Assembly (NCBI RefSeq): GCF_000026545.1
Contig: NC_011601.1
DNA length: 64,000 nucleotides
Direction: 5' to 3' (one strand)
Source of the DNA: Escherichia coli O127:H6 str. E2348/69
GTDB lineage: Bacteria; Pseudomonadota; Gammaproteobacteria; Enterobacterales; Enterobacteriaceae
The notes beneath the pieces were generated by a model. The model was not told the DNA's origin. It saw only the letters and a program-made list of their open reading frames with translations, and made no database searches. The translations under genes were made by a program, and so were the position numbers. Below are positions 3,956 through 4,345 of the stretch, in pieces (position 1 is the stretch's first letter; each line of letters starts with the position of its first letter).

Positions 3956-4345
3956 TTACACAGTATGAAAATGCCCGGTGTATTTGCGCCAGCTACCCAG
4001 TTCTGTAATTTCCCGTTGGCCTTCGGTCAGCCAGTTTTCTGCCAGTACGCCCAGCACTTCGCTACCATCGGCAAGTTTGATTTTGCCAATTGCCAGCCCA
4101 GCGGGTTCGCTCATTAACAGAGCGGCAAAACTGGCCAGCGGTAATTGCCAAATTTCTACGTCGACGTGTGTTCCTCCTTCATTCACGCGAATCATTCCCG
4201 GATGGCGATCATTAATACTCCACAACCGGTAATGGGCGTCAGTTCGGTCTTCACGGACAAAAATACCGCCCGCTTTTTGCATATTTGGGTTGAGTTCCAG
4301 GCCGCGCATCAGCGTTCCGTTAACGGCTAAAAGCGTTGTAGTCAT
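3956..4345 (-). CDS. Small GGCT-like (AIG2/gamma-glutamylcyclotransferase-fold) protein
   Basis: 129-aa ORF with N-terminal LLAVNGTLMRG motif resembling the YGTL/YGSL signature of the GGCT fold; GGAGAA Shine-Dalgarno 7 nt upstream; 16 nt after carbamate kinase stop. Confidence 0.45.
   Translation of the reverse strand: MTTTLLAVNGTLMRGLELNPNMQKAGGIFVREDRTDAHYRLWSINDRHPGMIRVNEGGTHVDVEIWQLPLASFAALLMSEPAGLAIGKIKLADGSEVLGVLAENWLTEGQREITELGSWRKYTGHFHTV

Follow-up and report, generated by a model that had tools for sequence, protein, structure and literature searches.

A stand-alone AH_C-family protein encoded with a TrtA-type hydrolase in Escherichia coli and its proposed role in triuret utilization

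The window analyzed here is a stretch of 64,000 nucleotides (nt) of Escherichia coli O127:H6 str. E2348/69 (contig NC_011601.1). At positions 3956–4345 on the minus strand, it contains a gene for a protein of 129 amino acids (aa), the ortholog of c4763 of E. coli CFT073, which is located between the genes of a carbamate kinase and a permease, as had been described in the first-pass annotation of the window. The protein, referred to as c4763 in the following, is a stand-alone member of the Pfam family AH_C with a GGCT-like fold and shares this family with the C-terminal domain of allophanate hydrolase (AH). The same operon encodes a cysteine hydrolase with the residue signature of the triuret hydrolase TrtA. 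We tentatively propose, at a probability that we put slightly below even, that the operon serves the use of triuret with a yield of ATP and that c4763 acts in it as the decarboxylase of an N-carboxy-urea, either 1-carboxybiuret or allophanate.

The gene and its operon

The open reading frame (ORF) of c4763 is a real gene and not a chance ORF. It starts with ATG, its translation opens with MTTTLLAVNGTLMRGLELNP / MTTTLLAVNGTLMRGLEL in the ORF list, and a Shine–Dalgarno sequence (GGAG) is located 8 nt 5′ of the start codon. The protein has 4749 homologs at E ≤ 1e-3; the best 120 of these are 66% to 98% identical to it, are 105–188 aa in length and contain AH_C as the sole domain. The region from 2600 to 5500, which comprises the permease, AH_C and carbamate kinase genes, is 100% identical to the E. 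coli E2348/69 (O127:H6) chromosome and was found in 1556 of 5426 complete genomes of E. coli. The AH_C gene occurs as a second copy on 82 conjugative plasmids from E. coli and Klebsiella, among them a ColV virulence plasmid of avian pathogenic E. coli (APEC). The DNA identity is 90–95% for 81 of these copies and 96.9% for one, and 23 of the 36 nucleotide differences between the chromosomal copy and one plasmid copy are at third codon positions.

The start codon of c4763 follows the stop codon of the carbamate kinase gene after 16 nt, and its stop codon precedes the start codon of the permease gene by 25 nt, all three genes being encoded on the minus strand. Between 2600 and 5600, promoter-like sites were not detected, nor was any minus-strand terminator-like site between the three genes; two minus-strand terminator-like matches were both located within coding regions. 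Because intergenic sites of either kind were not detected there, the co-transcription of the three genes is plausible, which agrees with the first-pass annotation insofar as it had placed c4763 and the carbamate kinase on one transcript.

In strain Nissle 1917, the operon is intact and encodes, in this order, the cysteine hydrolase, the DUF2877, FdrA and DUF1116 proteins, the carbamate kinase, the AH_C protein and the NCS1 permease, with a LysR-type regulator gene adjacent (Table 1; the coordinates of arcC were transferred from the Nissle annotation). The FdrA, DUF1116 and DUF2877 proteins represent the subunit families of the oxamic transcarbamylase AllFGH and are encoded together with the carbamate kinase; the FdrA-like subunit contains the Pfam domains CoA_binding and Ligase_CoA. 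The permease is presumed to import the substrate. The TrtA-type enzyme is the only hydrolase of the E. coli operon, and a gene for the biuret hydrolase BiuH, for TrtB or AtzF, or with an amidase signature is absent from it.

Table 1. Positions of the operon genes and of neighboring features in the window
Feature	Positions	Strand	Basis
LysR-family regulator adjoining the operon	1724..2629	−	Pfam HTH_1 and LysR_substrate
NCS1-family permease, annotated as "cytosine permease", last operon gene	2707..3930	−	Pfam Transp_cyt_pur
AH_C-family gene, stand-alone, ortholog of CFT073 c4763	3956..4345	−	ORF list, Pfam AH_C, identity to PDB 5C5Z
Carbamate kinase (arcC), 318 aa	4362..5318	−	NCBIfam TIGR00746, 366 bits (cutoff 358)
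IS50-like insertion sequence, 1550 bp	5503..7052	+	Break in the Nissle 1917 alignment, end sequences, transposase Pfam
DUF1116/AllG-like transcarbamoylase subunit, truncated by the insertion sequence	7053..8293	−	Pfam AllG, 329 bits
FdrA/AllF-like subunit, 519 aa	8290..9849	−	NCBIfam FdrA, 498 bits (cutoff 433)
DUF2877/AllH-like subunit, 286 aa	9944..10804	−	Pfam AllH, 95.6 bits
Isochorismatase-like cysteine hydrolase, TrtA type, first operon gene	10810..11478	−	TrtA 6XIX, residue signature

The upstream operon genes of E2348/69 are disconnected from those of the carbamate kinase, the AH_C protein and the permease by an IS50-like insertion sequence (IS). It encodes a Tn5-type transposase (5668–7041, plus strand), and its ends read CTGTCTCTTATACACA and CTGTCTCTTGATCAGATCT, with the target duplication GCTGCGGT flanking the element. 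The alignment to Nissle 1917 is interrupted at 5502/7053, with 8 bases common to both sides. The DUF1116 gene, which encodes 474 aa in its intact form in Nissle, retains 413 of 474 residues at 7053–8293, and a 3′ remnant is left at 5311–5502. Among the 15 E. coli records listed, the annotation "DUF1116" is missing only in the three records of E2348/69 / O127:H6. Since the insertion splits the operon, the pathway is probably inactive in the E2348/69 lineage.

The cluster is part of the "tkt1" island between metE and ysgA, which is tied to extraintestinal pathogenic E. coli (ExPEC) of phylogroup B2 (PMC12928451). The start of the window (2–649) lies inside the extra transketolase gene of this island (tkt1 in the literature), followed by a gene for an RpiR/MurR-family regulator (679–1524); both genes belong to the B2-associated island and are located outside the ureide operon. 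On the one plasmid examined for the complete gene set, pAPEC-O2-ColV (L082, NC_007675.1), the whole operon was found at 6793–14969 with an AH_C protein of 91.5% identity. The FdrA, DUF2877 and hydrolase genes of this plasmid each aligned in two pieces, which may represent frameshifts or sequencing errors.

Family, fold and conserved residues of c4763

The Pfam profile PF21986 (AH_C) matched c4763 with 141.6 bits (cutoff 27, E = 1.6e-41), residues 5–123 corresponding to profile positions 2–122 of 123, and all 55 aligned family members were matched as well. Over all 129 residues, the protein is 100% identical to PDB entry 5C5Z, deposited in 2015 under the title "c4763, a uropathogenic E. coli-specific protein", and its RefSeq name is "allophanate hydrolase-related protein". 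With this structure, Kim et al. in 2015 (Acta Cryst F71:1042) reportedly likened c4763 to the AH C-domain. The structural resemblance between the two is thus already on record and not new. A later citation claims that a role of c4763 in urea breakdown was shown. In citing the 2015 work, a later paper describes c4763 as a homologue of allophanate hydrolase. The NCBIfam models of allophanate hydrolase (TIGR02713 and NF006043) reached 99–105 bits, below their cutoffs of 487–511, and covered the protein with their last ~120 positions only (about 440–595). The c4763 protein is not an allophanate hydrolase proper, because the amidase domain and the conserved histidine residue of the C-domain are both missing.

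An AlphaFold model calculated from the alignment of 55 homologs had a predicted local distance difference test (pLDDT) score of 95.2, whereas a model from the single sequence was unusable (pLDDT 42.6). The former superimposed on 5C5Z with a template modeling (TM) score of 0.97 and a root-mean-square deviation of 0.5 Å, and it matched the AH C-domain of Kluyveromyces lactis (4ISS/4IST/5I8I) with a query-normalized TM score of 0.89–0.91 (E about 1e-12). GGACT, GGCT, YtfP and PH0828 were matched with TM scores of 0.55–0.72 and a probability of 1.0. The structure prediction thus bears out both the GGCT fold and the kinship with the AH C-domain that the first-pass annotation had put forward. The profile search for the AIG2/GGCT family that had been recommended there gave a mixed result. 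Pfam PF06094 (GGACT) was detected in 37 of the 55 family members at E ≤ 0.01 (best 9.4e-15), but c4763 itself scored 20.0 bits and remained under the threshold of 22.8. With a sequence identity of 12–19% to GGACT and GGCT, c4763 is a remote structural relative of these proteins.

The conservation of residues was compared between 81 stand-alone sequences and 13 sampled AH C-domains. In the former, more than 40 columns are invariant, among them N9, T11, R14, N19, T35, Y39, R40, E64, E80, E103 and R120, so that the set includes three glutamate residues (Glu64, Glu80 and Glu103). Common to the stand-alone family and the AH C-domains are G10, Y39, R40, P49, E64, W66, P81, L84, E103, W119 and R120, whereas N9, R14, H48 and K88 are conserved in the stand-alone family only. 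The histidine of the V-G-A-H-L motif, present in 11 of the 13 AH C-domains, 4GYR and 4ISS among them, is replaced by Leu12 in all 81 stand-alone sequences; position 80 is occupied by Glu in all of the latter and by Val or Ile in AH C-domains. According to Fan et al. (2013), the V-G-A-H-L histidine is reportedly catalytic in the AH C-domain.

The motif VNGTLMRG (residues 8–15), which the first-pass annotation had regarded as YGTL-like, contains the loop NGTL at residues 9–12. An hhalign alignment of c4763 with human GGACT pairs N9-G10-T11-L12 with Y7-G8-T9-L10, that is, with the YGTL motif of the substrate-binding loop, and Glu64 with Glu66; the position of the YGTL tyrosine is occupied by Asn in all 81 stand-alone sequences. 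The paired residues reach as far as residue 73 of c4763 (75 of GGACT); if the alignment is continued for seven residues without gaps, Glu80 falls on Glu82, which is mutated in PDB entry 3JUD. As judged from this alignment, Glu80 is probably the counterpart of the catalytic Glu82 of GGACT, and the stand-alone family appears to have kept a GGCT-type arrangement of loop plus glutamate that canonical AH C-domains have lost.

Linkage to a TrtA-type hydrolase across phyla

The best PDB match of the operon's cysteine hydrolase was the TrtA of Herbaspirillum (6XIX) with 268.7 bits, compared with 228–232 bits for biuret hydrolases and about 105 bits for RutB. The residues that discriminate TrtA from BiuH were taken from the TrtA paper (F35, N41, A134, E160, Y187 and I205), and the hydrolase encoded in the window displays the TrtA state at all six positions. 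Altogether, 12 checked positions read DFFNKKAECYQI in this hydrolase and in the examined proteobacterial operon copies, as in TrtA 6XIX. The protein reached 273 bits with the NCBIfam BiuH model (cutoff 370), and the RutB score was below its cutoff, too. The designation as biuret hydrolase or RutB (annotation, PMC12928451) was rejected on account of these signature residues, PDB scores and sub-cutoff model scores; by its sequence, the enzyme is assigned to the TrtA type and not to the BiuH type.

When 100,044 species genomes were scanned, 80 loci with a stand-alone AH_C homolog were obtained. These homologs are 58–98% identical to the query and originate from Proteobacteria, Verrucomicrobia, Cyanobacteria, Nitrospira and Chloroflexi. 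A hydrolase with the TrtA signature is encoded within 5.5 kb in 58 of the 80 loci; where both flanks span 6 kb or more (50 loci), the count is 42. In addition, 18 loci contain a second hydrolase paralog with the BiuH consensus. The NCS1 permease gene (35 loci) directly follows the AH_C gene in most proteobacterial loci, a LysR regulator gene adjoins the operon in 34 loci, and the position of the AH_C gene in the operon is fixed in about 35 proteobacterial species. A carbamate kinase is encoded in 37 loci. The co-occurrence with FdrA-like genes, proposed as a check in the first-pass annotation, was seen in 36 loci, which encode both AllF and AllG. The suggestion made there that the protein might act on a carbamoyl or ureido intermediate is supported by the predicted functions of its neighbors, namely the TrtA-type triuret hydrolase, the AllFGH-like transcarbamoylase and the carbamate kinase.

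Two identities suggested by known enzymes were rejected. An AtzF split into two proteins, with a separately encoded amidase, does not account for the protein, because an amidase-signature ORF is present in only 2 of the 80 loci. Nor is it TrtB by homology, since TrtB groups with AtzH and HpxZ, and a phmmer search with the AtzH of pADP-1 (E ≤ 10, AH_C genes included) did not detect any AtzH/TrtB homolog in the 80 loci. A tblastn search of the window with AtzH gave weak, chance-level matches elsewhere and none at 3956–4345.

Canonical triuret and biuret clusters were retrieved independently of the AH_C gene, using TrtA as the query. The cluster of Pseudomonas luteola (L088) comprises atzF, an ABC transporter, formamidase, BiuH, an ATPase, TrtA and TrtB; Rhizobium shares the core of this cluster, the final pair being TrtA and a cupin. 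On a 3.2-kb contig of Nitrospira (L091), the order is BiuH, ABC ATPase, TrtA and AH_C, so that AH_C occupies the slot that TrtB holds in P. luteola; a search for a longer Nitrospira contig, on which AtzF might accompany the stand-alone AH_C gene, gave the 3.2-kb contig again. Clusters of comammox Nitrospira have been described as being without trtB, with allFGHK adjoining trtA and biuH (PMC12625717). Fusions provide a further link: among representative proteins, AH_C was found fused to an isochorismatase-like hydrolase in both orders (P0132 and P0136), to carbamate kinase (P0125) and to Cupin_7 (P0128). The isochorismatase+AH_C fusions copy the amidase+AH_C layout with an unrelated hydrolase.

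Several further observations were made in these loci. AH_C also occurs in architectures with a flavodoxin-like domain, with DUF3810 and with an HMG box, the last of which is probably a eukaryotic gene model. The gene directly downstream of trtA encodes a cupin in Rhizobium (L090, 9647–10000) and a TrtB/HpxZ-like protein in P. luteola (L088, 9516–9929). Cupins of cluster C12 were present in 11 loci, and in Verrucomicrobia a ChrR-type cupin gene lies directly upstream of the AH_C gene; the triuret pathway may have a further alternative accessory enzyme in the cupin. In two loci of the Chthoniobacter type (L046, 8629–8994, and L078, 10001–10360), the AH_C gene has genes for a urea ABC transporter on one side and for a urea/guanidine-type biotin carboxylase (1213–1229 aa) on the other, the latter accompanied by two DUF1989 genes in L078 and one in L046, and an amidase-signature allophanate hydrolase is absent within about 10 kb. 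Urea and guanidine carboxylase systems also yield allophanate. On pADP-1 (L086), the carbamate kinase gene arcC (21488–22447) directly adjoins atzC and thus represents a further carbamate kinase beside s-triazine/ureide catabolic genes. The loci of "Chryseobacterium sp. 18061" (L011) and "Citrobacter sp. 18056" (L012), both from the same study, agree in ORF coordinates and identities throughout, which suggests that the Chryseobacterium assembly is contaminated or mislabeled.

Proposed pathway, alternatives and related systems

The proposal of a decarboxylase is based on the chemistry of the compounds encountered in AH_C contexts. TrtA produces 1-carboxybiuret and BiuH allophanate, and allophanate hydrolase is held to form N-carboxycarbamate with its amidase domain. 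N-carboxylated urea is the chemical theme common to these contexts, and because it recurs in every one of them, we propose a decarboxylase. Both 1-carboxybiuret and allophanate carry an N-carboxy group, which they lose spontaneously as CO2 (PMC6219798). Dedicated enzymes, TrtB and AtzH, control this kind of step, and TrtB is the one known for the decarboxylation of 1-carboxybiuret (PMC7948467). The N- and C-terminal domains of allophanate hydrolase are described as carrying out sequential steps from allophanate to ammonium (PMC5770610).

In the proposed pathway, the NCS1 permease would take up triuret or a close acyl-urea, which the TrtA-type hydrolase would deamidate to 1-carboxybiuret. The AH_C protein would then release CO2 from the N-carboxylated urea, either from 1-carboxybiuret, which is the task of TrtB, or from allophanate. 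The carboxylate might be held by the NGTL loop together with invariant Arg/Lys residues, and an invariant glutamate, probably Glu80, might protonate the nitrogen. The AllFGH-like complex would phosphorolyze the terminal carbamoyl group to carbamoyl phosphate, from which carbamate kinase would form ATP. Two orders of the steps are conceivable. Carboxybiuret could be decarboxylated to biuret, which is then phosphorolyzed by the AllFGH-like enzyme, or it could be phosphorolyzed to allophanate, which is then decarboxylated. Both orders would lead to the same net conversion of triuret to two NH3, two CO2, urea and one ATP. The position in the slot of TrtB favors carboxybiuret as the substrate of AH_C. 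While family membership, fold, operon structure, the TrtA signature, the cross-phylum linkage to TrtA- and BiuH-type hydrolases and the altered active-site residues have been shown, we infer which compound AH_C acts on, that it is a decarboxylase and in which order the steps proceed. We also considered, and dropped, a GGCT-like cyclization that would turn triuret or carboxybiuret into cyanuric acid; since a cyanuric acid hydrolase is not among the annotated operon genes, the cell would have no use for this product.

It is possible, though doubtful, that the operon represents a new route of substrate-level phosphorylation for triuret or oligo-ureas, in which the TrtA-type hydrolase would be followed by AllFGH-like phosphorolysis of carboxybiuret, biuret or allophanate and by carbamate kinase, with AH_C as a new decarboxylase family that replaces TrtB by means of a GGCT-type glutamate. 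Triuret is formed from urate by peroxynitrite and has been reported in human urine. Given its presence in urine and the location of the operon on the tkt1 island and ColV-type plasmids, this pathway could serve extraintestinal E. coli as a host-adapted source of nitrogen and energy.

Several points weigh against a decarboxylase of the triuret pathway. The equivalence of Glu80 and Glu82 results from the short ungapped extension of the alignment and not from a superposition. A TrtA-type gene is lacking in 22 of the 80 loci, of which 14 are short-flanked on at least one side, and two TrtA-less loci of the Chthoniobacter type carry the urea/guanidine carboxylase instead. Because AH_C was the criterion by which the loci were selected, the sample is biased with regard to the absence of TrtB and AtzF. 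The hydrolase domains fused to AH_C display the signature of BiuH and not of TrtA, which favors allophanate over carboxybiuret as the substrate. AtzF is active in vitro without its C-domain. Furthermore, E. coli is generally urease-negative (PMC11326118), the operon is devoid of BiuH, and biuret and urea are called dead ends in Pseudomonas sp. ADP (PMC6219798). Without urease and BiuH, biuret and urea would be dead ends here, too, unless the AllFGH-like enzyme accepts biuret.

Other functions are conceivable for c4763. It could perform the task of the AH C-domain and decarboxylate N-carboxycarbamate, with the cysteine hydrolase in place of the amidase, the two proteins together forming a split, non-homologous allophanate hydrolase. 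Its homology to AH C-domains, the description of the AH domains as acting in sequence (PMC5770610), the resemblance of the isochorismatase+AH_C fusions to the amidase+AH_C architecture and the scarcity of amidase-signature genes beside the stand-alone AH_C gene are consistent with such a division of labor. We nevertheless regard it as unlikely, since the AH histidine is uniformly Leu in the stand-alone family, other family-specific invariant residues differ as well, and the neighboring enzyme bears the full signature of a highly specific triuret hydrolase. Moreover, we know of no isochorismatase-like enzyme that deamidates allophanate. The protein might also be a non-catalytic partner that organizes or stabilizes the hydrolase, the AllFGH-like complex or the carbamate kinase, as suggested for the C-terminal part of AtzF. 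The truncated AtzF467 is fully active with an altered oligomeric state, and fusions to three different partners would fit docking; c4763 itself is reportedly a homodimer according to the crystal structure paper. This role likewise seems improbable, given that the many polar residues invariant across phyla are typical of a small-molecule site rather than of an interface with changing partners, and that the set of partners varies by clade, with AllFGH and carbamate kinase being present or absent.

An action on carbamate has to be considered because the AH_C gene follows arcC so closely and a carbamate kinase+AH_C fusion exists; if carbamate were broken down to NH3 and CO2 more rapidly, the carbamate kinase reaction would be drawn in the direction of ATP. 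However, the AH_C gene occurs without any carbamate kinase gene in 43 of the 80 loci, carbamate is described as simply being hydrolyzed, with no enzyme assigned (PMC12928451), and the single fusion may be an artifact of gene calling, which leaves this function with little probability. Least probable is an ordinary γ-glutamyl(amine) cyclotransferase without a functional tie to the operon. Although the GGCT-like fold, the alignment of NGTL with YGTL and the probable counterpart of the catalytic glutamate would agree with it, the Pfam GGACT score is below threshold at a sequence identity as low as that given above, and the fixed operon position together with the hydrolase fusions points to ureide catabolism.

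If the proposed decarboxylation of an N-carboxy-urea is correct, a strongly conserved protein family that occurs in five or more phyla would receive a function. The protein would be a non-homologous replacement of TrtB, which would explain the apparent lack of trtB in the clusters of comammox Nitrospira, and AllFGH-like transcarbamoylases, so far associated with oxalurate only, would gain a second class of substrates. Triuret, as a product of urate oxidation that occurs in urine, would be a testable nutrient for the island, which is a marker of B2/ExPEC and APEC strains with a second copy on their virulence plasmids. The structure and the resemblance to the AH C-domain were known before; the analysis of the genomic context adds the specific proposal of triuret use by extraintestinal E. 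coli.

Among characterized proteins, c4763 of CFT073 (5C5Z) is no different from the protein of the window. The AH C-domains (K. lactis 4ISS, Granulibacter 4GYR and AtzF) belong to the same Pfam family and have the same fold, with a TM score of 0.9 and 27% identity. In contrast to them, c4763 is not fused to an amidase-signature domain, carries Leu in place of His and has Glu80 instead of Val or Ile, and the stand-alone proteins are far more conserved across phyla than AH C-domains are. GGACT, GGCT and YtfP are alike in fold and motif alignment, but the context of AH_C is ureide catabolism and not γ-glutamyl metabolism. TrtB and AtzH (DUF3225) resemble the AH_C protein in size (about 130 aa), and the chemistry proposed for AH_C would be analogous. 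TrtB is a 1-carboxybiuret decarboxylase and AtzH a 1,3-dicarboxyurea decarboxylating amidohydrolase; both activities have been measured, whereas that of AH_C is proposed. The AH_C protein shares no sequence similarity with them as judged by phmmer and belongs to another Pfam family and fold.

At the level of gene clusters, the canonical TrtA-TrtB-BiuH-AtzF cluster has the TrtA type in common with the E. coli operon, which encodes the AllFGH-like complex and carbamate kinase instead of the other enzymes. Among the papers searched, an operon context of this kind with a TrtA-type hydrolase appeared in a single one on nitrifiers, in which AllFGHK is interpreted as oxalurate catabolism. A literature search for the locus tags adjoining c4763 in CFT073 gave no relevant match. 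The clusters allFGH-allK and yahEFG-yahI of E. coli K-12 contain the same three subunit families and a carbamate kinase, and the order H-F-G-K is that of yahE-F-G-I, but they are without an AH_C gene, a TrtA-type hydrolase or an NCS1 permease within the operon. The absence of c4763 from fdrA-ylbE-ylbF-ybcF and yahE-F-G-(H)-I-J, by which the first-pass annotation had distinguished the operon from K-12, was verified by annotation and tblastn (best E = 1.6). AllFGH and carbamate kinase of K-12 convert oxalurate via carbamoyl phosphate with formation of ATP (PMC11326118). Since the subunits encoded in the operon are only 40–47% identical to those of K-12 (PMC12928451), the substrate of the AllFGH-like complex is probably different from oxalurate.

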